A stretch of 64,000 bases of DNA from Eledone cirrhosa (lineage: Eukaryota): assembly GCA_964016885.1 (NCBI GenBank), contig OZ024745.1, positions 63,302,001 through 63,366,000 on the forward strand, in the 5' to 3' direction. The position numbers and the translations under genes are program-made. Each line of letters opens with the position of its first letter. The first letter of the stretch is position 1. The notes beneath the pieces are model-generated. The model was not told the origin of the DNA. It worked only from the letters and a program-made list of their open reading frames with translations, and searched no databases. Shown one piece after another: positions 3,315 to 36,155 of this stretch.

Positions 3315-3391
<77 letters not shown>

Positions 3392-4660: not shown

Positions 4661-4726
4661 TTTCACGTTAATATTAAACAGTTACTACTATTTAAATAGT
4701 AGTAACTGTTTAATGTTAACGAGAAA
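4661..4726. repeat. 66-bp near-perfect palindrome
   Basis: cgttaatattaaacagttactactattt|aaatagtagtaactgtttaatgttaacg, centre 4693/4694. Confidence 0.9.
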
Positions 4727-5693
4727 TGCGAGAAATGCTCTTTATGCCAAGCAAACCAAAATAGAAAGTGTCAGAGCATTGTAAAGATTTAACTGTTGGT
4801 TTTTCGAGGCCCGGAGCTTTGAGCTATTCCCGAAGAATGTTTCCAATCCAACTGTAAAATAGTGGATCAACCTCTGAACAACATGTTTGGAGCCATAAGG
4901 GGGATACAACGAAGGTGATTAGCAATTGAACCGCACCAAAATCGTAATTCTTCCTATCGTCTGACTCTTTTTTTTCTATTGAATTAATATGATTCATATG
5001 TACATTACATGTTATTAGATTTTTGGATATGTTTGTTACGACTATTATTTCAAACATAACGTGATGAAATGCGAATCTGTCTCGGAGGAAAACCACCTCT
5101 CTTTCTCTTTCTCTTTTCCACAACTTAGCCCTAGGCTTATACTCATTATTAGGTATACTCAAGCAATCATTCCACGTATATACGAAAGACGTATCAAATT
5201 GAACGTTCAAAACCAATCATAAAACCAAAAGAAGTACGAGGAAATTAACGATTGGATATCATTTGATCGCGACGATGTCACCTTAGCCTAAGGTTAAGTC
5301 GACTATAAAATATAAATATAAGCGTGGAATTACAAAACGCTGATTTGAGAGTAACATTAAAAAAACTATTGATAAAAGATGACATGTTTCAATCGACTGG
5401 AAATACCCGCTAACAATTGGCATATCCAAAATTTTGAAAGTGCAAGGAAAATCAAGAAAAAGAAATGAAATACGTCAGCTGTTGTAAACGAATACGCGAT
5501 GTTTACATTATTACTCTGCCTATAGTCAACTTCTGTAATAGACAAATATGCATTACTTGAAAAGGTTGCTCTCGGGAACTATACAGTCACACAATTACAC
5601 TGTGTTTTGGGCTCAACTAGTAAATACCTTTCGATCGATGTCTACCTATAATTCTTTCTCTCTATATATATACATATATATATGTTATGGAAC

Positions 5694-14650: not shown

Positions 14651-16332
14651 CTCATAAAGTTTATATATGAAGACTAGGAATCTCTTGCTCCACTAAACAA
14701 AATACTTCATTGGATGGCGGTTGCCTTTCTTGAGTTCCTCCACCCTTTGACGTTTTTTTTCATCCCGCATGGTATCCAAAATCACCATCATCACCAAGCT
14801 AGCCTAGTGGGGTTGCCACATTCTTCCTTTATCCTGCAAAATCACTCCGGTTTCTCTCTGCGTATTGTTTTATTTTCTTGAAGCTATTTTTAATTCATGG
14901 AAGGGCCGCAAAAATAACTAATCTTAACGGGGTGTCTAATGCGAGTAGTGAAATATATGTGGTTATGTTTCAAGAAAAGATTAAACAAACATTTTACTCA
15001 CATTTCTAGTAATTTAGACACAATGAGAAGATGACAGCCTCAGTTTTTTTTTTTTTTTTTTTTTTGGCATTTCGAGTATTGCTGGACTGTCAGATGAATT
15101 CTACATTTAATAAAATAGAGAATTCATAAAAAGATCTATACAATATACCAATTGTTCAACGTGGTTTATTCTTTGAAATAACAAATAATCTCCAAGAATC
15201 ATCTAATGAATATTTGTACTCTAAATACGAGATTTTTAAGAACTCTTTACTTCTTGGAAAAAGGTCCACAATGTCTTTCGTAGTCTGTTAGAGTAGCTAC
15301 TATAACAGTTAAGGCAGCGTGACGTTCAAACTGTTAGGTTAAAATTGGCGAGAAGATGCCTAAAATGAAACCACAACCCTCAACTAACGAAACACTCAAC
15401 TGTACACATCGGAAGGTATAATTGATAACTGACTGATACATTTCAAAAGCCCGGTACAATGCAGTAGAAATAAATAAAGGGCAAACGATGAGAAATAAAA
15501 CATATAAGTGGATGAAACCTAAATCTTAACTTAGAAATGCAGGAAACTGCAGCAAATTTCTCTTAAAATCTCTTTGATCTCATACATTCTCATCGACTTT
15601 TATCATACTCACACATACACATACACATACACAAACATACACATACATACACCGACATATATTAGGTGTATATATACCTATATATATAGATATACATGTA
15701 TATATGATTGTGTATATATATATACATAGATGTATGTATACCTGTGTGGGTGTGTTTGCTGATGTAAAGAGCTAGGATATAACTCATTTTCCGAGTTTAA
15801 TGAAGCAAAATTAATGTCGTTTAAGATTTACTATGTGAAAATGATGTACTTGAAAGAGGCTACTACGTGAAATTAATGTGTAATCATAGCGACATTTTAC
15901 TCTGAAGATGGAAACGATTGTATATCTTGTTTCATTTCTCATCTTATGATTTGAGTCTGGCAATAAAAGTAAAGTTTATTAATTTCAATCATTTAAAGTC
16001 ATTTTAAATCACTTCATATAAACACCATTAAAATTAATTTAAATACCCTACTCGTATCTTTTGCGGGGTAACGTGCAGATCTCTACACGCAAAGATGTAA
16101 AATACTTTGAGAGTTATTTCTGAAGAATCGTTGAAATATATACACCAGATTCTGAAATTAATTTCCGGACCAACAGTATTCAAAGTTATTAAAGTGGACG
16201 GTCTTTCCAAATAGTCACTGTCGTCGCTAAATTGACTTTATTCTATGTCAGAATAATATGACTCTCTGTTTTCCTCATTCAATTCTACGTTCTCATCATC
16301 ATTTATCATATTTCTTCTTCTTCTTCTTCTTC

Positions 16333-16367
<35 letters not shown>

Positions 16368-16382
16368 GTTGTTATTGTTATT

Positions 16383-19300
16383 CCTTGAATCTCAGTCATT
16401 GATGTTGGTTAACTGGAAAGTCCGTTGGATTGAATATCAAGCCACTACCTGCAGCCTCAGATATCCAGGACGTATCGGAGGGTTCTTGCTGTTCCAAGCA
16501 AGCATGCCTTTTGAAGCGTTCCAAAAAGCGTGAAGAGGCCGATTTTCTTTAACCATCCCTGGAAACTTTTGGAGATAATCCCCAGTGCGCCTATGACAAT
16601 CGGGATCACTTTGACTTCATGGCAGTTCCAAATCCTTTTCACCTCCCACTTTAGGTCCTGGTATCGGTTAATTTTCTCCCTCTCCTTCTCTTGCACTCTC
16701 GTGTCGAACGGGCAGGCCACATCCACAATCAGGCACGATCTTTTTTCTTTGTCCACAACCACCAGGTCAGGTCTATTGTGTTCCAGTTTTTTGTCCGTCT
16801 GTATCCTAAAATCCCACAGCACCTTCACCTGATTGTTCTCCATCACCGCCTCTGGCCTATGCTCATACCATTTCTCAGAATGTGGTAGATTGTTTACTTT
16901 GCACAGGTGCCAGTGGATCACCCTGCCCATCACATCGTGTCTCCAGCCCTTATAGTGGGTCTGGGCTAGGTGTTTACACTCGGACACAATGTGAGCCACA
17001 GTCTCCTCTCTCTCTCCACAGATCCTGCACAGTGGGCTAGCCTCCTCCTTGTAGATATGGTGCTTCAACCACTTCGTTTTGAGGGCCTGCTCCTGCGCAG
17101 CCATTAGCATTCCTTCTGTAGCCTTTTTGAGGTCTCCTCTTCTCAACCAGTTCCATGTCTGTGGATATCTAAATTCAGTTTTCTCAAAGAAGGTACTATG
17201 AAGGGGTTTTCCCTTAAGGCTGCTCTTCCTCCTTGATGTTATTTCCTCCCTGGACATCCCCTGGCCTACTGTCCCCTCCTTCAGTACAGTTCTGAGCATT
17301 GGCTCCTTACTATAGGTCACGTATTTGTATAGGTTGTTTTTCTCCATCTGAACACAGTCCTCTATGCTGATAAGACCTCTTCCACCCTCAGATCTCCTTA
17401 GGTAGAGTCTATCGACATCACTCCTCTTGTGGAACATGTTGTAGATAGTCAATAGCTTCCTAGTCTTCCTATCCATTTCTTTCTGTTCAGCAACATTCCA
17501 TCTCAGAATTCCCACAGCTCGGGAATTTACTGCGCTTATGGCATTTCTGCTGTTCAGATGTGACTTCAATACGCTCCTTACTCTCCGAATGTATTCAGTT
17601 CTTAACAATTCCTTCATTTTTTTGTTCTTTATGCCATCAGCCTCCAGAACGCCCAAATACTTGTATCCTTCCTCAGAGTCAATTTCCTTTATCATCTCAC
17701 CTGTTGGTATCTGGATCCCGTTACTTCTGCTCAACCTACCCCTCTTCATCACAATGACTCCACATTTACCAATACCAAACTGCATACATATATCACTGCT
17801 GAAAATACGGACAGTGTCAACAAGCACATCCAACTCCTTCTCACTTTTCCCGAAGAGCTTAAGATCGTCCATGAAGAGGAGGTGATTGATGGTAAGCTCT
17901 CCCCTTCCCAACTTGTATCCTGCTCTCACTTTTCGCAGCATAATGGTCAAGGGCATCAGGGCAAGGACAAACAACAGAGGGGACAGGCTATCTCCCTGGA
18001 AGATACCTCTCTTGATCTTCACGCTTCCCAAGGATACTCCAGTTGATGTCAACTCTGTCTCCCAGGACCCCATACGCCTGCCTAGCAACTGTCTGATGTT
18101 ATCTGCCACCCTGAAGATCTCCAGGCTTTTGGTGATCCAGGAATGAGGCACCATGTCAAATGCCTTTCTGTAGTCTATCCATCCCATGGCAAGATCAGTG
18201 TGTCTCCTCCTGCAATTCCCCATTACCATCTTATCAATAAGCAACTGGTCCTTTGTACCACGTGACTTCTTTCGGCATCCTTTCTGTTCGTCCGGTAACA
18301 AGTTGTTTGTGTGGAGGTGATGGTAGATTTCCTCAGACACAATGCTCGTCAACAGTTTCCACATTACGGGCAGACATGTGATAGGTCTATAGTTGGTAGC
18401 ATCATTACCCTTGATTCGGTCTTTCATTATCAGAACTGTGGTACCTTTTGTCAACCACTCTGGCACCTCACCCGACACCAAGCAGTCATTGAACATGGCC
18501 GTCAGCTTCGGGTGGAGGGATGTTAGATGTTTAATCCAATACCCCTGCACACCATCTGGGCCTGGTGATTTCCAGTTGGTTAGTTTTTTGGCTTGCCCCT
18601 TAAGAGTTTCAACTGTGATACTCAAATCAGTCTGTTGCTGTGCCTGCTCACCGATCTCCCTCTGTACTGTCTCAATCCACCCTGCCTGGGCATTGTGTCT
18701 AACATCCTGCTCCCATATTCCTCTCCAGAATGTTTTAGTTTGCTCCGCCCCAGGGATCAAGTCGTTGCCTCTTTCTTTGCCCTCAAGCTGTCCAAACAGC
18801 ATCTTCTGGTTGTTGTCGAACATGCGGTTCTGTTTATACTGACTGACTCTGTTCTCGTATCGCCTGATTTTTGCACTCTTTGCTACAATGCGTTGCTTCA
18901 ATTCCTCTATGATAATATTTAGCTTTTTACTCCTAGTTTTGTATTTTATTTCCAGTCTATTTTTAGTGCCTATGTTTTTTAGTGTCCCATTCAGTAGTGA
19001 CTCAAGCTTTCCTATGTCATTTCTCATTTCCCCGATTTGCCCACTCAGTCGCTTCTTCCACCACGGCTCTGCTCTTTCTTGTCTGTTGTTTCCTCTCGCT
19101 TTTATACCAAGTAGTTTCCTCACCGTATTTGCTGTTGCTCTGAGGATATTGTTGCACTGGTGAAGGCTCCTCGCCTCAAGGTATGGGATGACTTTGTTTA
19201 CCTTAGCTGTTGTTTCTTTTAACTTTTTCCTGACTACAAATCTTAGGTTCATAGGTCTCCCACTATCATTGTTCAATTCATCTACCACTAAATTTAGGAT

Positions 19301-19990
19301 GTCAACCGAATCTTGTCCTAGCCCGTCAGCATTCATCTCCTCAGTGGCCGTATCTCTGTTCCAGGTATTATTTATCTCAGTACTCAGATCATTGTCTGCT
19401 TCGGGTGGTTCCTCCGTTCTCAGGTCCTCCTCACCTTCATTTCCCACCGGCTCGCTTGTCTGGCATACTACACCCGCCATCTCCAAGCCATTCTCTCTGC
19501 TCAGTTCCTCCAGTTCCAGCTCGCTTATCCACCCATTAGTTCTTATTACCCGAGCCTGCCCGGCCAATTTTTGTTCATCTAATTTAAATAAACCAATCTC
19601 GTTCCAGATGTTATGCATCCGTCTCCTGTAGCCCCTCTCCTTGGGGTTACTTTTCAGGTAGCATTGCATAACAGTTCTATTCAATTCTTTCGTCCAGTTG
19701 GTTCTGGCCCCTTTCCTTCTTCTCCTTCCTCCAACATCAGCAGTATTTGGTTGACAGTCAGGTTCCTGCTGCTGAGCCAGGGGGCACCTGTTGGGTGAGA
19801 GTCTGTCACATGACGTTCTAGTCTCCATTTCACCGTTATTTGAACTGTTTATGTTCGATATTTAAACACTCTTATCGAGGATTGGCGAATGTATGTTTAC
19901 ATAGCCATCTGTGGATCCGCCATCCCACTTGGCCCTTGTGTGGCATTATCACCACGCTGTATACGAACACACATAAACAAACAAACACAC
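16383..19990 (-). mobile_element. Dong/R4-clade non-LTR retrotransposon family A, full-length copy (A1)
   Basis: Single ORF, 74-nt 3' UTR ending in (TAA)n (16333-16382); 5' boundary approximate. Confidence 0.93.
16457..19828 (-). CDS. RT + CCHC zinc finger + restriction-like endonuclease polyprotein (1123 aa, uninterrupted)
   Basis: Myb-like N-terminus (RTNWTKELN), KSPGPDG, YRPITCL, DYRKAFD, QGDSLSPLLF, FMDD, YKYLG, CRIC-x8-H-x4-C, RHD, RPDLVV..DVACP..KINRY. Confidence 0.95.
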   Translation of the reverse strand: METRTSCDRLSPNRCPLAQQQEPDCQPNTADVGGRRRRKGARTNWTKELNRTVMQCYLKSNPKERGYRRRMHNIWNEIGLFKLDEQKLAGQARVIRTNGWISELELEELSRENGLEMAGVVCQTSEPVGNEGEEDLRTEEPPEADNDLSTEINNTWNRDTATEEMNADGLGQDSVDILNLVVDELNNDSGRPMNLRFVVRKKLKETTAKVNKVIPYLEARSLHQCNNILRATANTVRKLLGIKARGNNRQERAEPWWKKRLSGQIGEMRNDIGKLESLLNGTLKNIGTKNRLEIKYKTRSKKLNIIIEELKQRIVAKSAKIRRYENRVSQYKQNRMFDNNQKMLFGQLEGKERGNDLIPGAEQTKTFWRGIWEQDVRHNAQAGWIETVQREIGEQAQQQTDLSITVETLKGQAKKLTNWKSPGPDGVQGYWIKHLTSLHPKLTAMFNDCLVSGEVPEWLTKGTTVLIMKDRIKGNDATNYRPITCLPVMWKLLTSIVSEEIYHHLHTNNLLPDEQKGCRKKSRGTKDQLLIDKMVMGNCRRRHTDLAMGWIDYRKAFDMVPHSWITKSLEIFRVADNIRQLLGRRMGSWETELTSTGVSLGSVKIKRGIFQGDSLSPLLFVLALMPLTIMLRKVRAGYKLGRGELTINHLLFMDDLKLFGKSEKELDVLVDTVRIFSSDICMQFGIGKCGVIVMKRGRLSRSNGIQIPTGEMIKEIDSEEGYKYLGVLEADGIKNKKMKELLRTEYIRRVRSVLKSHLNSRNAISAVNSRAVGILRWNVAEQKEMDRKTRKLLTIYNMFHKRSDVDRLYLRRSEGGRGLISIEDCVQMEKNNLYKYVTYSKEPMLRTVLKEGTVGQGMSREEITSRRKSSLKGKPLHSTFFEKTEFRYPQTWNWLRRGDLKKATEGMLMAAQEQALKTKWLKHHIYKEEASPLCRICGEREETVAHIVSECKHLAQTHYKGWRHDVMGRVIHWHLCKVNNLPHSEKWYEHRPEAVMENNQVKVLWDFRIQTDKKLEHNRPDLVVVDKEKRSCLIVDVACPFDTRVQEKEREKINRYQDLKWEVKRIWNCHEVKVIPIVIGALGIISKSFQGWLKKIGLFTLFGTLQKACLLGTARTLRYVLDI

Positions 19991-20249
19991 AGGCAGAAAG
20001 GGCCCCAAAAATGAATAAGCATAAGTTTCATTGTAATGTAGTGTTCGAATGTCTGACTTAGTTTTAGTTTTTTAAGTTTTACTTTTCCCCCCCTCTTCTC
20101 TGTCCGTCCGCCTGCTTCTCTCTTCATTCTTATTTTCTTTACGTTTTTGGGGTTTCTTTTTTTTTGTTTTTGTTTTTCTCTGTTTGTTTTTCTCGTTTTT
20201 TGCTGTTGTTGCTGTGCTGCTTTGGTTTTGTTGTTTGTTTTTTCTTTTT

Positions 20250-20895
20250 TCTTTTGGGTCTATCTATATATTTTGATGCCTTCCTCTTTGTTAGTAGTAG
20301 GAATTCTATAATGTGGAAGTAGCAGCCAGCAGGGAAGTGGGAGACTGGCGGCGCTAGCGATACTGAGACAGTGGTGGTGGTGATGTCGATACCGAGGCAG
20401 TGGTGGCGGTGATGTGACCGTATTACTGTAGTGATGGTGCTGTAGCGGAGTCAAGGGGTGGTGGCGGCGGTGATGGGATAGTGGTGGTAATGATGGCCGT
20501 AGTGAGCGGTGGCGGTGAAGGTGAAAATGTGTCGTTATCTGGCTGTTGTGTTTAGTGTACACAGATGATGGGGTGGGTGGTGTATCTAGTTTCTGGTGTT
20601 GGTGAGTTTAGCTGTCCTATATAGTGTAGCCAGAGGAGAGGAGGGGAGGGGTTCTTCTTCCATTTATAGCCATTTTTTTTTTTTGGATATACAGTGTACA
20701 ATACAAAGTTGAATATTTGAATATTTGAGCCTTATAACAATATATTTTGGGTCCGAATTTTTTGGGGCTCAAGCCGGGTGCTTTACGTAGCATTTGTACT
20801 AAGAGTTGTTATTTCACAAATGATTTAAATATGTTAAAAATTCAAAACTTACGGGAGCGATTTCATGACCTCCGTCACCTCGTGCGTCTTCTTCC

Positions 20896-20896
<1 letters not shown>
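20250..20896 (-). other. Leader segment D, copy 1 (unknown origin)
   Basis: Homologous to ~35425-36105; right end ...cgtgcgtcttcttccc fused to (ATT)n; minus strand resembles a 5' UTR followed by T/P/S-rich coding-like sequence. Strand is inferred. Confidence 0.7.
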
Positions 20897-20934
<38 letters not shown>

Positions 20935-20959
20935 CATTATTATTATTATTATTATTATA

Positions 20960-20995
<36 letters not shown>

Positions 20996-21007
20996 AATGA
21001 ATAAAGG

Positions 21008-21076
21008 GGTCGATAAAATAAAGTACCAGTAATGCACTGGGTAATTGCTGGCCTTGTGCCTAAAGTAGAAACAATT
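21008..21076 (+). mobile_element. SINE 3' fragment whose tail runs into (ATT)n
   Basis: gggtcgataaaataaagtaccag...gtgcctaaagtagaaacaattattatt. Confidence 0.85.
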
Positions 21077-21100
21077 ATTATTATTATTATTATTATTATT

Positions 21101-21353
21101 CCTTGAATCTCAGTCATTGATGTTGGTTAACTGGAAAGTCCGTTGGAATGAATATCAAGCCACTACCTGCAGCCTCAGATATTCAGGACGTATCGGAGGG
21201 TTCTTGCTGTTCCCAGCAAGCATGCCTTTTGAAGCGGTCCCAAAAGCGTGAAGGGGCCGATTTTCTTTAACCATCCCTGGAAACTTTTGGAGATAGTCCC
21301 CAGTGCGCCTATGACAATCGGGATCACTTTGACTTCATGGCATTTCCAAATCC

Positions 21354-21354
<1 letters not shown>
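21101..21354 (-). mobile_element. Dong family A, 254-bp 3' fragment
   Basis: Matches 16383-16636; (TTA)n on both sides. Confidence 0.93.
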
Positions 21355-21387
<33 letters not shown>

Positions 21388-21396
21388 GTTGTTATT

Positions 21397-23306
21397 CCTT
21401 GAATCTCAGTCATTGATGTTGGTTAACTGGAAAGTCCGTTAGAATGAATATCAAGCCACTACCTGCAGCCTCAGATATTCAGGACGTATCGGAGGGTTCT
21501 TGCTGTTCCAAGCAAGCATGCCTTTTGAAGCGTTCCAAAAAGCGTGAAGGGGCCGATTTTCTTTAACCATCCCTGGAAACTTTTGGAGAAGTCCCCAGCG
21601 CGCCTATGACAATCGGGATCACTTTGACTTCATGGCAGTTCCAAATCCTTTTCACCTCCCACTTTAGGCCCTGGTATCGGTTAATTTTCTCCCTCTCCTT
21701 CTCTTGCACTCTCGTGTCGAAAGGGCAGGCCACATCCACAATCAGACACGATCTTTTTTCTTTGTCCACAACCACCAGGTCAGGTCTATTGTGTTCCAGT
21801 TTTTTGTCCGTCTGTATCCTAAAATCCCACAGCACCTTCACCTGATTGTTCTCCATCACCGCCTCTGGCCTATGCTCATACCATTTCTCAGAATGTGGTA
21901 AATTGTTTACTTTGCACAGGTGCCAGTGGATCACCCTGCCCATCACATCGTGTCTCCAGCCCTTATAGTGGGTCTGGGCTAGGTGTTTACACTCGGACAC
22001 AATGTGAGCCACAGCCTCCTCTCTCTCTCCACAGATCCTGCACAGTGGGCTAGCCTCCTCCTTGTAAATATGGTGCTTCAACCACTTCGTTTTGAGGGCC
22101 TGCTCCTGCGCAGCCATTAGCATTCCTTCTGTAGCCTTTTTGAGGTCTCCTCTTCTCAACCAGTTCCATGTCTGTGGATCTCTAAATTCAGTTTTCTCAA
22201 AGAAGGTACTATGAAGGGATTTTCCCTTAAGGCTTCTCTTCCTCCTTGATGTTATTTCCTCCTTGGACATCCCCTGGCCTACTGTCCCCTCCTTCAGTAC
22301 AGTTCTGAGCATTGGCTCCTTACTATAGGTCACGTATTTGTATAGGTTGTTTTTCTCCATCTAAACACAGTCCTCTATGCTGATAAGACCTCTTCCACCC
22401 TCAGATCTCCTTAGGTAGAGTCTATCGACATCACTCCTCTTGTGGAACATGTTGTAGATAGTCAATAGCTTCCTAGTCTTCCTATCCATTTCTTTTTGTT
22501 CAGCAACATTCCATCTCAGAATTCCCGCACCGTACCTAATAATAGACACAGCTCGGGAATTTACTGCGCTTATGGCATTTCTGCTGTTCAGATGTGACTT
22601 CAATACGCTCCTTACTCTCCGAATGTATTCAGTTCTTAACAATTCCTTCATTTTTTTGTTCTTTATGCCATCAGCCTCCAGAACGCCCAAATACTTGTAT
22701 CCTTCCTCAGAGTCAATTTCCTTTATCATCTCACCTGTTGGTATCTGGATCCCGTTATTTCTGCTCAACCTACCCCTCCTCATCACAATGACTCCACATT
22801 TACTAATACCAAACTGCATACATATATCACTGCTGAAAATACGGACAGTGTCAACAAGCACATCCAACTCCTTCTCACTTTTCCCGAAGAGCTTAAGATC
22901 GTCCATGAAGAGGAGGTGATTGATTGTAAGCTCTCCCTTTCCCAACTTGTATCCTGCTCTCACTTTTCGCAGCATAATGGTCATGGGCATCAGGGCAAGG
23001 ACAAACAACAGAGGGGACAGGCTATCTCCCTGGAAGATACCTCTCTTGATCTTCACGCTTCCCAAGGATACTCCAGTTGATGTCAACTCTGTCTCCCAGG
23101 ACCCTATACTCCTGCCCAGCAACTGTCTGATGTTATCTGCCACCCTGAAGATCTCCAGGCTTTTGGTGATCCAAGAATGAGGCACCATGTCAAATGCCTT
23201 TCTCTAGTCTATCCATCCCATGGCAAGATCAGTGTGTCTCCTCCTGCAATTCCCCATTACCATCTTATCAATAAGTAACTGGTCCTTTGTACCACGTGAC
23301 TTCTTT
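21397..23306 (-). mobile_element. Dong family A, 5'-truncated copy (A2)
   Basis: Near-identical to A1 16383-18271; premature TAG at 22361-22363 and a frameshift near the C-terminus; (TTA)n on both sides. Confidence 0.95.
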
Positions 23307-23320
23307 ATTATTATTATTAT

Positions 23321-25069
23321 TTGCATTTATCTTGCTTTATGTTCATACGAGTTATCACCAAGTCGCAACCAGTGACCTCAAGAGACAACAAGGTCCGCCA
23401 TGTTCAAGAAAGAACATACATATTCACACAAGCATCCTTAGTGTTTGGACTTCTGATGTACTTATATTGACAGGATCTTCCTTAGTATATGGGCAGTTCC
23501 CATTAGTACTATCTTTTGTATTTCTCCTATACGCGGGTTTCCTGGGATTTGCGATAAGTAGTCGTTAGACCCCTTAGGTATCATTCCCAGAGCGCCTACA
23601 ACGACTGGTATTGTTTTAGTTCTCAATTTCCACATTTTTCCAATTTCTATCTCCAGGTCCTTATACTTGCTCAATTTTTCAAATGTTTTTATAGATACAT
23701 TCTTGTCTATTGGAACAGACATATCAATTAGCAGGCATACCTTCCTTTGAAAGTCCTTCAATATTATATCAGGTCTATTTGCATCTATTTTTCGGTCTGT
23801 TTGGATGCTAAAGTTCCACAAGATTGAGATGTGATCTTTTTCAAGTATGGGAGGTGGTTGATTCTCCCACCAATTCTTTTGATGGGGCAGGTCAAAATGC
23901 TTACACATTATCCAATGTATGTATTGTGCAGCTCTGTCATGCCTGTTTAGGTATTCTGTTGGAGCTATAGGACTGCACATTGAAATTATATGGTCAATTG
24001 TCTCTGGTTGTTTTTTGCATACACGGCATAATGGGCTGCACCCATTTTGTATTATGTTGGCTTGGTAATTTTTTGTTGGCAGACACTGATCTTGTGCCGA
24101 TATAATCAGTCCAACCACTGATGGGTTAAAGGTTTGTCAACATCAGGATTGTTAGCTCGATCTGGGTATTTTCCATACAGAGGCTTTTCTTGCCATTTCT
24201 TAGCCAGTTTCTGTAACAGTTCTTTCTTTGCAGTTACTTTTACCTGCTTTGCTTTTTCTGTGTTTTCCATTTCAGCAGTAAATGGGACTTCTGAAATTTG
24301 TAGTCCATTACTGTATCTTTGTGCATCTTTTGTAATGGAATATGATCTTTTGGTGCTTTCGTGTTTCAAAACGAGTTTGATCATCCAATCATGTGATTCC
24401 CTTAGTTATGTGGATAATCCAATTGTTGCAGTTTTCAACGCAATGTCTAACTGGATTAACCCACGTCCTCCTTCTTTCCTAGGGAGATATATTCTATCTA
24501 TGTCTGCCTTAGGGTGATGCATTCTGTGCATGGTTAAGAATTTTCGGATTTTTGTATCGAGCCTACGGATCTCTGTGCTTGACCAGTTGATGACATTGTA
24601 ACTGTAGGTTACTACTGGTATGGCAAGCGTGTTTATGGCATCGATCCTATTCCTTGCATTCAATTCCGTTCTTAAGATTGCTCTGACTCTGCGGTAACAT
24701 TCCTTCCTTATCCTTTCCCTCATTGTCGAGTGCCTGATTCCGTCTCCTTCACAAACACCTAGATATTTGTAAGTTTTTTCTTGATCAAGCTCTCTTATCA
24801 CGTTCCCCCGATCAAGATTAATGTCTGAACTCTTCAGCAGCTTTCCTCTGGTGAACGTTGCTTTGGCGCATTTATCCAGTCCAAACTCCATTTTAATGTC
24901 ATCACTGAACTGCTTCACAGTGGATAATAGCCCTTGCAATTGTTCATCATTTTTTGCAAATAGTTTCAGGTCATCCATGTAGAACAGGTGATTAATGGTT
25001 TTGTCATAGACTCTATATCCATGTTTTGTTTCATTGAGCATTTTACTTAATGGTATAAGTGCGATGCAG

Positions 25070-25074
<5 letters not shown>
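23321..25074 (-). mobile_element. Dong family B, 5'-truncated copy (B1)
   Basis: ORF pieces 23462-24118, 24106-24384 and 24406-25041 (YMDD, CRVC..H..C, RHD, RPDI); ~30-nt deletion near 24110; (TTA)n on both sides. Confidence 0.95.
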
Positions 25075-25105
<31 letters not shown>

Positions 25106-25313
25106 GGCGACCTACGTAGGAAATCGTATTATCGTGAGCTCCGCAAAGGTTTGTTATTTCCGTTTGTTTAAAAATTGCCATTTATGGAAAATTTTATTGT
25201 AAACTGTTTATAAGCACTCATACATTGTTTTCCGAAAAGGACACCCAAAAAGATTGGGGCCTTGTGCCCAAAATTTTAACTTTTATTATTATCCAAAAAT
25301 TTCTTTGAAATAA

Positions 25314-27275
25314 ATGGCTAATTCCCCTCTGCACGAAGCAGCTGAAAGCCTTCCTCACAAAATAACACCTCACACCGACACCACCATTGTAAATGTTACT
25401 ACGTTTGCCAACACAAAAAAAATATAAGCAGTAGCAATATTTTAAATTTGTCTCAGGCAGACATTCATTTCCCGCCATTACCAATGACTGCAGGTGTTAA
25501 ACCCTCCACCACCACCACCACCACCGCGACAACAGAAACAAAAGAAGAAAAAAATAAATTAACTCGTGACGTCGAAATGAAATCAAGCAAAATGGACTCT
25601 TCCCCACCAAAGACGACTGACGTCACCACCACCACAACTGAAAATAAAATTAATATTAACGATAACAACAACAACAACAATGACATTATAAAACCGACCC
25701 TCAGTTTCGCCATCGTAGCAAAACAATTCGAAGCGTTCACGGTAACTCAAGAAGATTTAGAAAATGCCAAACAAATGGTAAAGAAAGATGGGTACAGGGT
25801 CAGCCCCCCCCCCCCACACCTAATAAAATGGAGCATCGGCGCCTGTGCACCGTGTCGTATAGAACAATAAATGTAAAATCGCGCCGAGTGAAACGGGCAT
25901 CCGAGTCCCAAATCCAAAAAGCTTTGGGACATGTGTGGGCAAGAAAAACCCACATCAGACGTGGGCAGAAGTATGGAACCGTGGACGTGTTCTTTGAAAC
26001 ACCAGAGGAGGCTAGAGAACACTCCATGGCCCCATTAAAAAGTGACGACTTCACACTCGTCCCAAGCTATTGTGGCCAGAGACTCGTAAAGATCAGAGTG
26101 ACCCACGTTCCACCGGCCATCGAAATTCCCTGGCTAATAGCGGCTGTCCTCGCCGGCATCGAAGCCAACACGAAAATAATAGCAGTAGCAAAAGAAAAGC
26201 AGGAAAACTGGTCCGGATCTGGGATGGAGCTCCTGATCCAAGCGGACGAAAAAAGCATTGAGGAGATCCCAGAGGTAATAGACCTCACTGACGGCAGCCA
26301 CCTCACCGTAATTGTCGAGGGCAGAAGACCTAGGTGTGTCGTTTGTGGTGAAGGAACCCACCTAAGGGCTTTCTGCCCTCAGGCTAAAAGGTTGAGGCCA
26401 CCTCTCCTACCCACCCCAGTGACACAACCATCAACACCACCAGTAGCAGAGATGGCAGCAACAACTGTAGCAGCAACAAGAGAAGCAACTATAACAGCAA
26501 CAACCCCAGCAACAGTAGCAAAACCAACACCACTACCACCACCAGCAAAACCAACACCACCACCACCCAACGCTTCAGAACTAGCACCAACGCCTACACC
26601 ATCCACCACACCACAACCAAAACTAACGGCTGTGGAGGATTTTCCACTCCCCGGCCTATCACAACTGGAGACAGATTGTGACGACGAGGAGTGGGAAACG
26701 ATATCCGGAAAAAAGAAAGAAACCAAAAAAGAAAAAATTCTCTTCCTTCCCCCTCCAAAAACAAAATACAGAGGGAAACAAATAAACTAAGAAACAAAAA
26801 AGTTAGGACAGATATGCCACCATCCACACCAGCATCACCAACCCCATCAACCCAAACACCAACACCATCACCATCATTATCCCCAGCACAACCATCACCT
26901 ACACCACAAAAGTCACCAAAATGCGAAACAGAAACAAACCCACAACAAACGCAAACAAAACAAAACAACCAAAACGATACACACTACACAGCATTAAATT
27001 TGAACAACAAGCAATTATTACACTACATCCAACACAACACCAGCATCACAGAAAAAGACTACACAACAACCCCAAAATTCACACCACCTCCACACATACA
27101 AATCACTCGCATCACACAGAAAACGTACATGACACTAAAACAAAAATTCCCCAAAGACATCGGAGACTTCCGACAAGCACTCTCCAGGAGGATTTATAAG
27201 GACATCCTTCCTGAGGAGGCCACAAGCAGTGAAAAGGATGGAAAAGACGTCCTTCCCCTACGAGAAGTAAGGTAA
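25314..27275 (+). pseudogene. Tx1 ORF1 (gag-like zinc knuckle), frameshifted
   Basis: Pieces 25448-25870, 25828-26790 and 26691-27275; CVVCGEGTHLRAFC (CX2CX4HX4C); T/P-rich linkers; start approximate. Confidence 0.8.
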
Positions 27276-27309
27276 GTGGTCTTTCCCATCTTTTCCACTC
27301 ATTTTCAAC

Positions 27310-30300
27310 ATGACCTCACTCAGAATAGGCAGCATAAATGCGCGTGGCTTGGGGTCGTCATGGAAGCAGGGCCACCTGCTCAACGACCTCAGGTCACTAA
27401 ACATAGATGTAGTGGCCATCAGCGAGACCAGAATCTCCGAAGCACAGGCTTTCGCACCGATCTTCGGCGGCTACGATGTGTACGCATCTCCCAGCCGTCC
27501 GCGATCGGGGGGAGGAGTTGCTGTGCTTTTTCGGAGAGGTTTGGATCTTGCCATACGGGCCATCTTCCTGGACCCAGAAGGTAAGTTGGTGGTGCTGGAC
27601 GTGACCAGCGGAGACGGGCAAGCTTTCAGGTTAGTGGCCGTCTATGCCCCGACAGGAGCAGGGCGGCCTGATTTCTTCCGGCGTCTGGAGACCTTTCTTG
27701 GAACGTCCCGCTCTTTAGTGTTAGTGGGCGACTGGAACGGGATCTTAGATGCACGCTGGGATTGTGTGGGATTAGTGGATAGGAGAGGAGGGTGCAAGAG
27801 TCTCACCAAGCTGCTCAGGCGTTTTGAACTGTCTGACAGGTACCGATTGGATTTCCCGAATGTACCAATGTGGACTTGGACAAATCGCATAGGGTCATCC
27901 AGATCATATCTAAATAGAGTATTTTGTAGGGAAATAGATAGGTCTAGCATAGGCTGTCCACAATTCAAGATAGTCAGCTACACGGACCACAAATTCGTGA
28001 TCTGTGTGCTTGACTTAGATAGGCTTCATAGACGAGGACCCGGCTACTGGAAGTTAAACGCGTCCTTACCAGCGCGCAAGGCCTACAGAGACCGGATTAG
28101 CGAACTAGTTAAGCGGGCGTTGACGGGGGCCATCGTCAACAACAAGTGGTGGTTTGCTCTGAAAAGAACAATTAGAATAGAGTCCATTTAGTAAGACTTT
28201 AGCAATAGAGAAAAAAAAAATAGAGCAGAGGGAGAATTAGTTAGAAAATTAGATGAGGCGCTTAGCAAAGGCATCGCGACCGACGTACTTGCGGCGAAAT
28301 TGGCCCTTGACCAATTCTTCAATGCAAAGCACGAAGGCTGCGTTGTCAGAGCTAGGGTGCGTGCTCTCAGACACGAGGGGACGAAAGCCGTTCAATGGGC
28401 CCAAGTGGCGGAGGCGCGTCGTGGCAACAAAGCCACGATCCGGTCTTTGGTGGACCACGACGGGCGCATGCTACTCGATCCCGGGCAAATGTGTGAAGCT
28501 TTTCAGCGACACTTCGCTCAACTGTTCGGGGGCAGTGGCGGGCCGGATCGAGGGATGGACTTTAGTGTCTACCTCGACGGACTGCCGCGGCTTTCGGCCA
28601 CTGAGGCGGAGTGTTGCGAAAAGCCGATAACAACCGCTGAAGTACGGGATGCAATGACTAGTTGCACAAGGTGTAAATCGCCTGGTTTGGTTGGTCTGCC
28701 CTATGAACTTTACGTACAAATGCCAAACTTGTTCGGAGGCCTCTTGGCGGACGTTTACTGCAACTGGCAACAGAACGGGAGAATTTCCAGCTCTGTGAGC
28801 CGAGGAGCGGTGGCGCTGCTGAGAAAGGATCCGAACAAGGGGGATAACATAGATAATTTTAGGCCCATAACTCTGCTAAACACAGAGTTCAAGATTTTGG
28901 CCAAGGTGCTAGCAAAGAGGTTGGCGCTTGTCGTTGGTGGTCTGGTGGGAGAGGCACAGACATGCGCCATTCCCGACAGATCCATCCACGACAACCTCCA
29001 CCTCATGCGATACATCGTAGAGAGGGTAGCTAGGGAACCTGGCACGGGTGGGTCTTTGATCAATTTAGATCAGTCGAAAGCCTTCGATAGGGTCGACCAT
29101 CGTTACCTAACGGCAGTCCTGAGGGCGGCTGGCTTTGGGCCCGTCTTCAGAGGCTGGATCGCTGCCATGCACAGCGACATCTGCTCTGTAGTGAGAGTGA
29201 ACGGTCGCCTTTCGGAACCGTTCAACATCATGCGCTCGGTCCGCCAAGGATGTCCCCTCTCGTCCCTCTTGTACGTATTGACTCTCGAGCCATTACTGCA
29301 CAAACTGGAGACGTTGAGGGGGGACCCGCGCGAACTAGGATGCGGAAGATCCGTGTCAGCATATGCCGACGATGTCACCGTAGTGGTGTCGAACGCCAAA
29401 CACATCGAGGCGATCGGCACTACACTAAGAGAATACGAAGCGGTGACAGGAGCAATGATCAACCAGGAAAAGTCAGTGGGCCTGCAGCTCGGCACCTGGA
29501 GAGGCAGGTCCATGCCGTCCAACAGCGTCGTCGGGCGCTGGACGGACGGACCGGTTAAATTGCTAGGGGTCTGGTTCGGTCCAGACCTCCAGACGGCTAA
29601 AAACTGGGACGAGGTGACGAGCAGGGTGGCTTCTCTCACCCAGAAATGGGCCGAGAGGAAGCTATCCCTGAAAGGTCGAGCGGAGGTGGCGAATGCGTAC
29701 ATCGCATCCGTCATCTACTACCGCCTGACCGTCGTACCTTGTCCTAAGCCCCGCCTGACTGCGCTGGAGCGTTTGTTCTTTCGCTTCTTGTGGAAGGGAC
29801 GCGCTCCGATGGTCAGGCGGTCCATCTGCTGTCAACACCCGCTACGTGGAGGGCTGGGCATGCCGTGGCTGATGATGCGCAGACACGCGCTCAGGCTACG
29901 ACATCTCCACCTCTTCCTCGACGGTGATCAGGTGTGGTCGCCGTTTGCAAGACACGTTTTTCCCCAGCTCGTCTCCTTGACGGAGCTGCAGTCCTGGGTC
30001 AAGCGAAGACCGAGAGGGAGCGCTTGGAGGCTGGAATGTCTTCAGGCGCTCACAGCCCTCGACCAATCGGGCAATGTGATCGGTGGAAACTCCACCTTGG
30101 CGTTCTATAGGGGATTAGTGGAGGGGAAGAGCGACGACGTACTTGGAGAAACTCTAGGCGTCGACGAAAATCAACTAGCCAATCTCTTCGGAAGGACTTT
30201 CGGGCCGGGGCCTATGGACAACTTCCAGAAATCCTTGGCCTGGCAGTGCTACCGAGGAGCTTTGCCAGTTCGGGATAAACTCTACAGGCATGGAGGTGCC

Positions 30301-30729
30301 GTCAGCCGGGCATGTCCGAGATGCGCGCAGGGCGACGAAACCGTCCTGCACGCACTCGTCCAGTGTCCGAGCATTGCTGACTTGTGGGTTTATGTCGAAC
30401 ACCTGCTGTCACGTGTAGGACGGATCCAGCTATCAGCTGAGTCCAACGTGAGGATTGCCCCGCCCCCTTCCTTTAGCCTGGAAGGGCAGGCAGTTTTTAT
30501 CTGTCTGGTGGCCATGGCGAAAGAGATAGTATGGTGGACACGTTTGAAAGGGCTGAAGACGAGCACTTACCTCTTCGGTGATGCCCTGATTAACTTTTTC
30601 AAATTTCATTTGAAAAGGAAAATCAGGGTAGAGAGGGAAGTGCTCTCTTCCCAGCATTTTGTTGAAAGATGGGTGAGAGAAGCAAGTATGGCCCGAATGA
30701 ATGGGCCTTCTCTGAGTATGTGTCTGTAA
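27310..30729 (+). pseudogene. Tx1 ORF2 (APE endonuclease + RT + Cys domain), disrupted near 28190-28220
   Basis: SINARGL, ISET, VYAP, VGDWN, TDH, GYWKLN; RPITLLN, DQSKAFD, QGCPLS, YADD; CPRC..ETVLHALVQC. Confidence 0.93.
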
Positions 30730-30971
30730 ATTAAAGGTGGAAAACGGGGAGAGGGCACTTGCCCTGGTGGTCAGGGCCTCTGTGGTCTTTTAATGGGCTT
30801 TCTCCACAAATGTCCCTTGGAAGTCTCCCCCCTATTGGGGAATTTTTCTTTGTTATTTTATTTCAACCTCTGTTTTTTTACACGCAGAAATGCCCATTTG
30901 TACCGTCCTGTATTGTCCTGTACTGTCCTTAATGTCTACTTTATGTGAACCCTTGTGGTTAATAAAGAAAA

Positions 30972-31044
<73 letters not shown>

Positions 31045-31045
<1 letters not shown>

Positions 31046-31158
31046 CTTGAATCTCAGTCATTGATGTTAGTTAACTAGAAAATCCGTTGGAATGAATATC
31101 AAGCCACTACCTGCAGCCTCAGATATTCAGGACGTATCGGAGGGTTCTTGCTGTTCCC
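31045..31158 (-). mobile_element. Dong family A, 114-bp 3' fragment
   Basis: Matches 16383-16495; (TTA)n on both sides. Confidence 0.9.
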
Positions 31159-31175
31159 TATTATTATTATTATTA

Positions 31176-34100
31176 CAGTTGCATTTATCTTGCTTTATGT
31201 TCATACGAGTTATCACCAAGTCAAGACCAGTGACCTCAAGAGACAACAAGGTCCGCCATGTTCAAGAAAGAACATACATATTCACACATGCATCTTTAGT
31301 GTTTAGACTTGTGATGTACTTATATTGACAGAATCTTCCTTAGTATATGGGCAGTTCCCATTAATACTATCTTTTGTATTTCTCCTATACGCGGGTTTCC
31401 TGGGATTTGCGATATGTAATCATTAGACCACTTAGGTATCATTCCCAGAGCGCCTACAACCACTGGTATTGTTTTAGTTCTCAATTTCCACATTTTTCCA
31501 ATTTCTATCTCCAGGTCCTTATACTTGCTCAATTTTTCAAATGTTTTTATAGATACATTCTTGTCTATTGGAACAGACATATCAATTAGCAGGCATACCC
31601 TCTTTTGAAAGTCTTTCAATATTATATCAGGTCTGTTTGCATCTATTTTTCGGTCTGTTTGGATGCTAAACTTCCACAAGATTGAGATGTGATCTTTTTC
31701 AAGTATGGGAGGTGGTTGATGCTCCCACCAATTCTTTTGATGGGGCAGGTCAAAATGCTTACACATTATCCAATGTATGTATTGTGCAGCTCTGTCATGC
31801 CTGTTTAGGTATTCGGTTGGAGCTATAGGACTGCACATTGAAATTATATGGTCAATGGTATCTGGTTGTTTTTTGCATACACGGCATAATGGGCTGCACC
31901 CATTTTTTATTATGTTGGCTTGGTAATTTTTTGTTGGCAGACACTGATCTTGTGCCGATATAATCAGTCCTTGAGTCTCCGATTTCAGTCCAGAGGATGC
32001 CAACCACTGATGGGTCAAAGTTTTGTCAACATCAGGATTGTTAGCTCGCTCTGGGTATTTTCCATACAGAGGCTTTTCTTGCCATTTCTTAACCAGTTTC
32101 TGTAGCAGTTCTTTCTTTGCAGTTACTTTTACCTGCTTTGCTTTTTCTGTGTTTTCCATTTCAGCAGTAAATGGGACTTCTGAAATTTGTAGTCCATTAC
32201 TGTATCTTTGTGCATCTTTTGTAATGGAATATGATCTTTTGATGCTTTCGTGTTTCAAAACGAGTTTGATCATCCAATCATGTGATTCCCTTAGATATGT
32301 AGATAATCCAATTGTTGCAGTTTTCAACGCAATGTCTAACTGGATTATCCCACGTCCTCCTTATTTCCTATGGAGATATATTCTATCTATATCAGCCTTA
32401 GGGTGATGCATTTTGTGCATGGTTAAGAATTTTCGAATTTTTGTATCGAGCCTACGGATCTCTGTGCTTGACCAGTTGATGACATTGTAACTGTAGGTTA
32501 CTACTGGTATGGCAAGCGTGTTTATGGCATCGATCCTATTCCTTGCATTCAATTCCGTTCTTAAGATTGCTCTTACTCTGCGGTAACATTCCTTCCTTAT
32601 CCTTTCCCTCATTGTCGAGTGCTTGATTCCGTCTCCTTCACAAACACCTAGATATTTGTAAGTTTTTTCTTGATCAAGTTCTCTTATCACGTTCCCCCAA
32701 TCAAGATTAATGTCTGAACTCTTCAGCAGCTTTCCTCTGGTGAACGTTCCTTTGGCGCATTTATCTAGTCCAAACTCCATTTTAATGTCATCACTGAACT
32801 GCTTCACAGTGGATAATAGCCCTTGCAATTGTTCATCATTTTTTGCAAATAGTTTCAGGTTATCCATGTAGAACAGGTGATTAATGGTTTTGTCATAGAC
32901 TTTATATCCATGTTTTGTTTCATTGAGCATTTTACTTAATGGTATAAGTGCGATGCAGAATAAAAGCGGTGATAAAGAGTCACCCTGAAAAATTCCACAA
33001 TTAATATTAACTTCTCCAGCTTCCAGTGATTTTGTTTCACTATTCAAAAGGAGTGTCGTTTTCCACGTCTTCATACTGAATGACAAAAACCTCCTGACAA
33101 CGGGGGATACTTTGAAAATCTCTAAACATTTTTCAATCCAACTGTGTGGCAAACTATCAAATGCTTTTTTATAATCTATCCAAGCAATCGATAGATTTTT
33201 GTGTCTATTATGACAATCTTCCAGTATCATTTTGTTAACCAGAAGCTGATCCTTACAGCCATATGAGCCTCGTTTACACCCTTTCTGCTCAATGGGAAAT
33301 AGGTAATTTGTTATCAGGTGGTCATATGTGTATTCAGTTAGGACTGATGTTAAAATTTTATACATTGTGGTCAAGCAAGTTATCGGTCTGTAATTTTTGG
33401 GATTGTTTGTCTCATCATTCTTCGGAAGCAGGAATGTAATGCCGTTAACTAGCCATGAAGGTATCTTTTCTGGCTCCTTAACTATTTCATTGTAAAGTTG
33501 GGCTAACAGCTCATGAAACTCTGTGAAGGCAGTTATCCAAAAGTTTTGTATTTTGTCTTTTCCTGGGGATTTCCATTTGCTGGTTTTTCTTAGAGCCAAG
33601 CGCAACTGTTCAACTGTTATATTTTCCCATGTTTGTTCCTCAAGGTGAGCTGTATCTTTCATTTGTCTGTCTATCCCTGGGACATGTATGTTATGAACTT
33701 TTTCTTCGGCCCAGATCTTTTCCCAGAATTCTTGCACTTCCTCCTTGGGTGGTATTGATTTAGCAGTTATTGTTGACTTACCAATTTTTCTGTAGAAGTT
33801 TCTTTGGTTGTTTTTGAACATATTATTGTCCTTATAGAATCTAGATCGTTTTTCAAAGCGCCTTATACGAGCAGCTTTGGCCGACACTCTTTGCTTGATT
33901 ATTTCTATCAGCATGTCTATGTCACATGTTGATTTTATAATGTACGTTTTTTTCAATTTTCTAAGTTTAGTTTGTTTAACATGTTCACCTACTTTATAGT
34001 TTGTTAAAATTTCTATGTCAGATCGGAGAAGGTTTATTTGGCGATTGATGTTCTCTTGCCAAGTAGATTTCTTGTGGGAATTCCTTTGTTTTTTCATCTT

Positions 34101-35150
34101 CACTCCACATAAGTGAGTGGTGACTTTAGCCGATGCATAATAGAGATGATTTAAATCAGTAATCTTTAGTTTGTTTGTGATGATAATGTTTTTGAGAATT
34201 ATGTTAGTCTTGTGTATTATCTTTTGGTTCTGTTTGGAGTTCTGGATCTTAGGGAGGGTGTCTCGTTGCCCCATGTCAGATTCTTTCATTTTCATCCATT
34301 CGATCATAATTTCATCCTTCAAGTTGGCAAGTTCATTCTCATTCATTTCCTTATCATTTACGATCTCATTATTTTCATTTGGAGTTTCATCCTGAGCATG
34401 CACTCCCTCCACTTTTTCGATCCTTTCTTTAATTTGTTCTGTTGCCAGTGATTCCGCCCCAACCCTGGGATTCGAAGTGTTACAGTTTACCTCATCTTCA
34501 CTGACACATGTTTCATTTTCCCTTCGCTGACTTTGTGCTAATAGCTTGATCTGATCAATTTCTATATCAGTTAGTAACTTTTTTCTTACAATATTTCTTC
34601 GTATATTGGCTAGTTTGTTACTGTCAATATAGCCTCTGTTTTCGGGATGTTTCTTTTTCCAGTTGATATATGTCTGTTCTGTATTCGATGTATTTGATGG
34701 GTAGTACATGGCAGTGTAGAAAGCCTCAAGGACTTCTTTATTATCTTCCCTTGACCATTTTTCTCTCTTTTTCTTTGGATTTCTTGGTGGTGAGCATGGA
34801 GGGCCAACAGTAGGAGTATTCCGGTTATGGGAGGTCTCCAGCTCCGAAGTGATGGGAAGGTTTGAACCATTAGCTGATTTTTCGACCCCAGTCTGGTTCC
34901 TCTCTGAGCGACGCGGCCCTTTTTTACCCGGGTGACGGCCGATCCGGTATGAGATTTTATTATTAGACATTTACTTTATTTTTTCGCGTTTTATCCTTAT
35001 CCGCCAAGGGGTAATCATTTCGTGTTACCACTTCTAGAACGAGTGTCAACCAAGACTAGAGGGGTCGTTCTCCCCTAGAGACACGGCTATTCCCCTCCGG
35101 CCGCCATCCCGGTATTTCTTGGTCACGGGGTTTTCTTTTTGTTGTTTTTT
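31176..35150 (-). mobile_element. Dong/R4 family B, full-length copy (B2)
   Basis: 144-nt 3' UTR into (TAA)n; structured 5' UTR at ~34971-35130. Confidence 0.93.
31320..34970 (-). pseudogene. Family B RT-RLE ORF (1217 codons) with one in-frame stop and YMDD>YMDN
   Basis: ORFs 32361-34970 and 31320-32327 share a frame; motifs EKWSRED, KSPGKD, DYKKAFD, QGDSLSP, YMDN, CRVC..H..C, RHD, RPDII. Confidence 0.92.
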
Positions 35151-35217
35151 TTTAAATTGTTATTATCATGAGTGGTTCCTTAATGTGAGCATTGCTTGGC
35201 TTAAGAATGAAATTATT

Positions 35218-35268
35218 AATAATTGTCTCCACTCCAGGCACAAGGCCAGCAATCACCCAGTGCATTAC
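35218..35268 (-). mobile_element. SINE 3' fragment
   Basis: aataattgtctccactccaggcacaaggccagcaatcacccagtgcattac. Confidence 0.75.
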
Positions 35269-35279
35269 AATAATATAAT

Positions 35280-36105
35280 ATACGTTTTGTTGTAGTTGGC
35301 TGTTATTGTTGTTGGCTATGTCGGTGGTGGTGCCGGGGCTTTTTATGTTGTTGGTGAGGAAGGGGTGAGCCAGCAGTCCCATATTTGTTGATATTGTCGT
35401 TTGTCCTTGGCCAGGTCACTAAGTCAATCTATTTATATCTTTTGCTAGCCTCTCCCTTGTCTAGTGATACCACCACCTTCCCCTTTCTCTCTCAAGTTAA
35501 CAGGGGAATAGTGGTGGTAGCATTGAAGGAGTGGTGGCGGCGGGGAGATGTGGGAGACAGTAGCGGCGGTATCGATACTGAGACAGTGGTGGTGGTGATG
35601 TCGATACCGAGGCAGTGGTGGTGGAGACGTGATCGTATTACTGTAGTGATGGTGTTGTAGCGGTGGTAGCAATGAAGGAAGGATGGCGGCGGTGATGGGA
35701 TAGTGGTGGTAATGATGGCAGTAGTGAGTGGTGGTGGTGAAATTGCCGTTATCGGGCTGTTGTGTTTAGTGTACACAGAGAGGTGATGGGGTAGGTGTTG
35801 TATCTAGTTTCTGGTGTTGTTTGGCTGTTCTATATAGCGTAGACAGAGGAGGGGGGGGGGTTCTTCTTCCATTTATAGCCATTTTCTTTTTTGAATATAC
35901 AATGTACAATATAAAGTTGAATATTTGAATATTTGAGCCTTATAACAATATATTTTGGGTCCGAATTTTTTGGGGCTCAAGCCGGATGCTTTACGTAGCA
36001 TTTGTACTAAGAGTTGTTATTTCACAAATGATTTAAATATGTTAAAAATTCAAAACTTACGGGAGCGATTTCATGACCTTCCGTCACCTCGTGCGTCTTC
36101 TTCCC
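35280..36105 (-). other. Leader segment D, copy 2
   Basis: Homologous to 20250-20896 with the same right-hand junction to (TTA)n; left end differs. Confidence 0.7.

Positions 36106-36155
<50 letters not shown>

Follow-up and report, generated by a model that had tools for sequence, protein, structure and literature searches.

The 64-kb window analysed here, from Eledone cirrhosa (contig OZ024745.1, positions 63,302,001 to 63,366,000 of the forward strand; coordinates below are those of the window), contains at 16333-42083 a retroelement array whose members are packed head to tail with TTA/TAA tracts between them. Its minus strand holds six Dong/R4-type pieces, namely A1, two truncated A copies, B1, a 118-nt A fragment and B2, and its plus strand holds the Tx1-type elements C1 and C2 and one 3' part of a short interspersed element (SINE). 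Of particular interest is a leader-like sequence, D, present in two copies on the minus strand. D1 stands directly upstream of A1 and D2 directly upstream of B2, the only two of the six Dong-type copies that retain a 5' end. D is therefore found before 2/2 full-length Dong copies and 0/4 truncated ones, a pairing expected by chance with a probability of 1/15, which becomes 1/45 when about 10 tract slots are counted; both figures are post hoc. Its orientation is that of Dong and opposite to that of C1, C2 and the SINE at 21006.

A1 (16381..20032, minus strand) is a full-length Dong/R4-type element with a 5' untranslated region (UTR) of about 204 nt, one open reading frame (ORF) and a 33-nt perfect TAA tract past its 3' end; the frame is open for 1134 aa (16457-19861) and has a Pfam RVT_1 match. 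B2 (31176..35155, minus strand) is a full-length copy of a second family with one in-frame stop, its 5' end being placed from the window sequence alone. That the two come from different families, as a sequence-only reading of the window had claimed, is confirmed by their proteins, which are 35% identical over 1202 columns, and A and B have no DNA similarity to each other. Both encode a single ORF with a reverse transcriptase (RT) and no apurinic endonuclease (APE) domain, and all six Dong 3' ends enter a perfect tract of 15-72 nt, as expected of Dong/R4 elements with a (TAA)n target. Read by eye, both also carry what we take to be a C-terminal CCHC and PD-(D/E)xK-type nuclease. A Pfam search at E 0.01 gave no Myb match in the A and B proteins, and when the N-terminal protein of A was compared with metagenomes, 0/74 candidate stretches were confirmed. 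The RT region of A1 (about 17400-17450, minus strand) has 7 codons fewer than A2 and B. An exact 10-mer, GGGATGGCGG, is common to the minus-strand 5' UTRs of A (about 19920-19935) and B (about 35095-35110), with no further similarity.

The core of D1 (20334..20896, minus strand) consists of a 224-nt leader, an ATG at 20671-20673 (AAATGGCTA) and frameshifted Thr/Pro/His-rich low-complexity sequence. Its proximal part (20033..20333, minus strand) is 54% A, Lys/Gln-rich on translation and not common to D2. D2 (35269..36105, minus strand) has its core at 35547-36105, its ATG at 35880-35882 and a proximal part that is distinct from that of D1 and shows weak collinearity with the beginning of C ORF1. 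Both copies begin GGGAAGAAGACGCACGAGG (minus strand, GGG start) directly after a TAA tract, the phase of which is off by one base between them; the tract 5' of D1 (20897..20956) has 36 + 21 nt perfect and that 5' of D2 (36106..36153) has 48 nt perfect. In self-BLAST, 20334-20947 and 35547-36155 are 89.5% identical over 628 columns, tract included, with 97.3% identity in the first 224 nt of D and 83.9%, with gaps, in the remainder. Only the distal 560 bp are common to the two copies, whose total lengths are alike (864 bp for D1, 837 bp for D2); the proximal parts align no better than chance (21/300 shuffles score as high). Frameshifts, and copy-to-copy indels of 1, 5 and 13 nt seen in public contigs, show that D is non-coding at present. 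D is a real feature whose boundaries have been corrected: the two copies had been placed at 20250-20896 and 35280-36105, and D1 in fact reaches 20033, next to the position 20032 at which public contigs of A end, and D2 reaches 35269. The identical distal end, the differing proximal ends and the restriction of D to the 5' sides of A1 and B2 were all read correctly from the sequence, no third copy being present in the 64 kb.

The proximal ends of D are exceptional within the array. Perfect repeat tracts of 15-72 nt are found at all array junctions other than the D-A1 and D-B2 joins, and 9/9 other elements (six Dong 3' ends, two Tx1 3' ends and the plus-strand SINE) run into such a tract; D does so in 0/2 cases. 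A tblastn search found no D remainder past the array on either side and no Tx1 remainder in the window. Some other identities for D were considered and rejected: a solo long terminal repeat was ruled out by a TG start in D1 only, and terminal inverted repeats by ends that are unrelated by eye. There was no sign of splicing at the D-Dong joins; the only GTRAG in D sits 45 nt from its 5' end, and proximal-end donors would be invisible without the parent element. Scans for an HDV-like (hepatitis delta virus) ribozyme at the 5' ends of A, B and D gave no match with an unvalidated descriptor that had no positive control, and a hammerhead scan, again with no positive control, was negative at the relevant ends. 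Rfam gave 6 matches, every one far under the gathering score, and the exact D 5' pattern had 0 matches in metagenome and viral contigs.

Neither D-Dong join is a clean fusion. D1 and A1 are separated by a single AAT unit (20030..20032, minus strand; ATT on the forward strand). Between D2 and B2 lies a three-part spacer of about 113 nt, all of it on the minus strand, which in sense order contains an ATT-type microsite, a 52-nt SINE 3' fragment (35217..35268) that runs counter to the array strand rule and has an ATT-type microsite on both sides, a 29-nt piece like the extreme 3' tip of Dong A (35176..35204; score 23, reached by 3/1000 shuffles, the only result at such a level among 8 anchored tests), and a degenerate TAA tract of 11 nt (35156..35166) at the B2 5' end as placed from the window sequence. 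The score of this degenerate tract is equalled in 1/275 windows of LINE (long interspersed element) bodies and in 14/777 windows outside the array. The sequence-only reading had D fused upstream of both full-length Dong copies, with a co-oriented SINE 3' fragment before B2 and with these two junctions the only ones lacking a TTA tract. The position of D and the SINE fragment stand, whereas the fusion gives way to an AAT unit in one case and a decayed spacer in the other, and the missing tract to one unit at A1 and a degenerate one at B2.

The SINE fragment in the spacer differs from its nearest window copies at five positions, and 5/5 of these differences are A>G on the sense strand; among the 7 other SINE copies, A>G accounts for 1 of 16 differences. 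This pattern fits adenosine-to-inosine editing at the RNA stage, which would have left an editing-like scar fixed in the DNA. The edited RNA could have been the SINE alone or the whole composite, the pattern being silent on which, and neither D2 nor B2 has an A>G excess of its own. The spacer as a whole looks like an older, decayed mini-array that may have been imported from elsewhere. Both ends of each composite lie within TAA tracts, which mask target-site duplications.

Public contigs extend these observations beyond the window. They come from X1 and X4, which are runs of one organism, and from X5, a run of another, and the findings rest on the contigs listed. A fourth run, X24, had 0 matching reads, which has no bearing either way. 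Contigs of A stop exactly at 20032 in two runs from the two organisms (X4 record 12, X5 record 21), and the adjoining stretch, 20033-20130, has high depth in both X1 and X4 but is absent from X5 among the contigs listed. The contig ends at 20032 and the depth of the adjoining segment in X1 and X4 set D1 at about 20033-20896. One contig (X4 record 14, depth 554) bridges 20260-20386; it crosses the point of divergence of D1 from D2 and agrees with D1 as far as 20260. At the other end, D contigs extend 25-26 nt into (TTA)n in the same orientation in both X4 and X5. At least two organisms thus have D as a multi-copy sequence anchored at TAA. That D might be a dispersed repeat without enrichment beside Dong 5' ends had been named as an outcome that would refute the sequence-only reading; D is not randomly dispersed, its 5' end adjoining (TAA)n in the contigs of both organisms. 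Contig depth at the D 5' end resembles that at the A 5' end (20 vs 28 in X5, 156 vs 145 in X4), and the first 178-195 nt of D show 0 differences from the contigs, against 13 in 1190 and 18 in 1085 for A (P 0.14 and 0.04). Similar depth and the absence of differences fit, weakly, a joint transport of D and Dong. Relative to A, D has a far greater depth in X4 than in X1, although both are from the same organism; library types are not on record, so this is silent on expression. Loose contig ends at 20439 in X4 and X5, where the D stretch 20341-20439 has a different upstream part, point to sister subfamilies with other 5' ends.

The origin of D is suggested by its leader, which is collinear with the 5' UTR of C, the sequence AAATGGCTA at the first ATG being common to D1, D2 and C1. 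The scores of the four D/C leader pairs were reached by 0, 7, 41 and 21 of 1000 dinucleotide shuffles (D1 leader against the C 5' UTR: 0) and by 0, 1, 3 and 1 of 1112 real window segments. Past its ATG, D is low-complexity and T/P/N/K-rich, like the variable start of C ORF1, and the D2 proximal part is marginally collinear with that start (its score of 51 is just above 50, the highest among 100 mononucleotide shuffles). From these similarities D is probably the start of a Tx1-related element. The homology expected of a Tx1-type 5' end, up to the ORF1 ATG, is present, if weakly; neither a conserved ORF1 core nor ORF2 was found downstream of D by tblastn in the window, and D is accordingly filed not as a Tx1 element but only as likely derived from one. 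Nor does D resemble a non-autonomous SINE or short internally deleted element (SIDE), which would share its 3' end with a partner LINE and carry its own tail: the D1 proximal end was at chance in 4/4 anchored tests against the 3' ends of A, B, C and the SINE, and D has no tract. Since the D1 end is unlike any element 3' end and is followed by no tract, priming of D at the 3' end it now has is unlikely, and the lack of both a 3' tail of its own and a 3' remainder in the window means that D is not an ordinary independent insertion at its present ends. The proposal that D is the 5' end of a fourth TAA-targeting element therefore keeps its value as to origin, given the leader similarity, and loses it as to the copies found here. 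A captured Tx1-type 5' end describes D better than a dedicated module shared between Dong families.

We favour, tentatively and with rather less than even confidence, an explanation in which two Dong families carry D as a Tx1-related, promoter-bearing start brought along on one read-through RNA. At each of two source loci, Dong would have inserted into a short TAA-like microsite within the low-complexity beginning of ORF1 in a D-type element. Transcription from the D promoter would next have yielded an RNA with the first 0.85 kb of D and the entire Dong, and the Dong RT/endonuclease, priming at the Dong 3' end in a TAA tract, would have copied this RNA up to the D start site. Such a course of events would account for the fixed 5' end, the differing proximal ends, the Dong polarity and the lack of a D tail and of a D remainder. 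D has the form of a 5' transduction, being sense-oriented, having a fixed start and standing upstream of an element whose 5' end is complete. The sequence-only reading had offered, as one of three options, a promoter module carried in this way by promoterless Dong families; of the three it fits best, with the dedicated module replaced by a captured 5' end. The anatomy, strand pattern and tract lengths are observed, and so are the boundary at 20032 and the multi-copy nature of D; the Tx1 origin and promoter activity of D, the source loci and co-mobilisation are what we infer, and with n = 2 the mechanism of the association is unproven.

A number of observations weigh against read-through capture. 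There are only two cases, and the enrichment figure was calculated after the fact. The Tx1 assignment of D hangs on a weak DNA alignment, and D ends ahead of the conserved ORF1 core. After low-complexity filtering D had 0 matches among 152 retrieved relatives of C ORF1 (before filtering it matched these 152 via low-complexity P/T/K-rich sequence only, and so did control regions). Two D frames were also used as protein queries and found no match among 957 and 24 candidates. X5 has A and the D 5' end, yet 20060-20199 is empty among the contigs listed, and none of these contigs spans 20032/20033, though this is no proof either way. The proximal 100 bp of D1 are deeper than the A 5' end (867-4900 vs about 180 in X4, 61-123k vs 33-59k in X1), which implies many such copies without A behind them. 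This excess is compatible with transduction if the parent copies run onward, and it supports an independent D family equally well. CpG decay gave no separation of ages (D1 2, D2 3; B1 0, B2 3), and age matching by this route was abandoned for having too few sites. Finally, the argument from polarity falls should the TAA strand be the target of the family to which D itself belongs.

An independent D family is the substance of an alternative that we consider somewhat unlikely, in which D arose from a Tx1 5' end as a TAA-targeting repeat in its own right, about 0.85 kb long, and came to neighbour Dong by serial insertion into tracts. The multi-copy state of D in two organisms with its 5' end adjoining (TAA)n, the stop of the A contigs at 20032, the similar lengths of D1 and D2 and the head-to-tail packing that is the rule of the array are all as such nesting would have them, and it is the depth excess of the D1 proximal segment, with the absence of that segment from X5, that keeps this alternative at the level given. 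It has to contend with the missing 3' tract, present in every one of the other nine elements; with proximal ends that are unlike each other, that of D1 matching no LINE 3' end, where an independent mobile family needs a common tail; and with the occurrence of D before full-length Dong only. Template jumping was another option of the sequence-only reading, and we regard it as unlikely. During insertion the Dong RT would have passed the 5' end of the Dong RNA and continued on a broken D RNA, in series at B2, so that each composite would be a one-off chimera. Such jumps call for a direct join with few extra bases, and the 3 nt at A1 agree with this while the long spacer at B2, which would take three jumps, does not. 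All pieces are sense-oriented, including the SINE fragment that breaks the strand rule, D is on 5'-complete copies only, and the A>G bias of the SINE fragment points to an edited RNA template; in vivo jumps of R2 to U12 and tRNA are on record (PMC3414825). The SINE fragment is nevertheless flanked by ATT-type microsites on both sides, as in an ordinary insertion, and the known acceptors are abundant small stable RNAs, so that the same 0.85-kb RNA in 2/2 events would need a very abundant D RNA.

Two further explanations start from DNA that was once longer or once single. D1 and D2 could be what is left of full-length Tx1-like insertions after 5 kb had been lost in place from their 3' side, by recombination or during Dong 5'-end resolution. 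The likeness of the D leader to C is in keeping with this, as are the target deletions known at R2 5' junctions (PMC2718515), but two independent events of similar length, both ending exactly at full-length Dong 5' ends, would be needed, and D is opposite in polarity to the Tx1 elements C1 and C2; we judge this improbable. An old segmental duplication, which the sequence-only reading had named as capable of overturning its proposals, is highly improbable and was not borne out. C1/C2, B1/B2 and A1/A2 are likewise duplicated in the array, yet the D copies are alike only from the tract at one end to a point within D at the other, their flanks are unrelated (SINE vs C2, and A vs B, which have no DNA similarity), and D is multi-copy elsewhere.

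With their single ORF, RT, C-terminal nuclease and (TAA)n insertion, A and B are like other members of the Dong/R4 clade (PMC7998251, PMC13282606), and (TAA)n is the usual target of Dong (PMC7998251). On the favoured reading D-Dong would be a variant of 5' transduction; among known systems, the co-option of a promoter by L1 at RAP1GDS1-L1PA2, where transcription of the element starts from a foreign promoter upstream and the foreign 5' sequence moves along in sense (PMC13174262), resembles it in the sense foreign sequence at its 5' end. The carrier here, unlike L1, is a single-ORF element with a restriction-like endonuclease (RLE), the donor is apparently another retrotransposon and the joins bear no sign of splicing. 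The 5' extension of SINEU-2B_Crp, explained by a master copy in Mariner-N4 (PMC4494074), is similar both in being common to several copies and in calling on a master copy inside another transposon; SINEU-2B_Crp is a non-autonomous SINE, whereas here two autonomous families with 35% protein identity share the same extension. R2 elements with U12 snRNA or tRNA 5' extensions of 18-170 nt, one form of which its authors suggest may have founded a subfamily (PMC3414825), are also RLE elements with foreign sequence at a full-length 5' end, but D is LINE-like rather than a small stable RNA, is about 0.85 kb long and is joined through target-like remnants. The nearest cross-clade hybrids are the R2/R1 SIDEs, short and non-autonomous with an R2 ribozyme 5' end and an R1 3' end (PMC3414825). 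They too combine RLE and APE clades with one target locus in common; the roles are reversed here, the putative APE-clade part being 5' and the RLE element complete. In the literature searched, whose scope was without most subscription journals and Repbase, no account of a 5' extension or of a promoter source for Dong was found.

The way in which Dong is expressed gives these observations their wider interest. R2-type elements share the transcript of their rRNA target, from which a ribozyme frees them (PMC3414825). Dong, in a scattered microsatellite, is without a host transcript of this kind, and an expression route for it was found nowhere in the literature searched. A captured Tx1-type promoter, if true, would be a concrete and testable answer, and two unrelated retrotransposon clades with a common target would be exchanging regulatory parts. 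If D is instead an independent repeat nested in the tracts, it is merely another repeat family in an array of known kind. A broader proposition, which we hold to be doubtful, is that the microsatellite-targeting Dong families here owe their transcription to repeated capture of the promoter of a Tx1-type element that shares their TAA niche, so that the active masters would be Tx1-promoter and Dong composites, in a cross-clade dependence that would have arisen at least twice and would now account for most genomic D 5' ends. Dong-R4 and L1-Tx1 have both been described as recently active in Octopus vulgaris, where 5 recently active Dong-R4 families make up 1129 insertions and 4,732,901 bp (PMC13282606). 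The mean insertion computed from Table 1 of that source is 4.19 kb, longer than A1 (3.65 kb) and B2 (3.98 kb) without D, which is a hint only, as families and species may differ.

Two 5'-truncated A copies (21099-21355 and about 21395-23304; together 21099..23304, minus strand), the 5'-truncated B copy B1 (23320..25075, minus strand) and the 118-nt 3' fragment of A (31043..31160, minus strand) were delimited by self-BLAST, and none has D upstream. The plus-strand SINE 3' part (21006..21076), identified by self-BLAST and comparison of SINE copies, has the usual (Tx1) orientation of the array. C1 (25106..30973, plus strand), recognised from its ORFs and Pfam matches, has an ORF1 with a zinc knuckle followed by an ORF2 with APE and RT, an architecture from which C would be assigned to Tx1, and its 211-nt 5' UTR is the closest match to the D leader; C2 (36156..42045, plus strand) is a second Tx1-type copy with 93% identity to C1. 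Two protein searches with C ORF1 gave 2 and 357 relatives. A strong splice-donor-like AAG|GTAAGT lies at 27269-27277 (plus strand), at the end of C1 ORF1 just ahead of the APE ORF, with a second at about 27581. A (GAAA)n tract at about 20960-20998 lies between the TAA tract of D1 and the SINE, and a (TTC)n tract at about 16314-16332 adjoins the left end of the array. In the left flank, 15990-16310 (minus strand) holds a short frame rich in Asp/Glu that may be the decayed start of a DNA transposon. Outside the array we noted fragmented RTE-like RT frames at 47077-48824 (minus strand) and, at the window end, a Penelope-like frame at 62734-63999 (minus strand), both labelled by eye, and a degenerate tandem repeat with a period of about 150-270 bp at 51203-52384.

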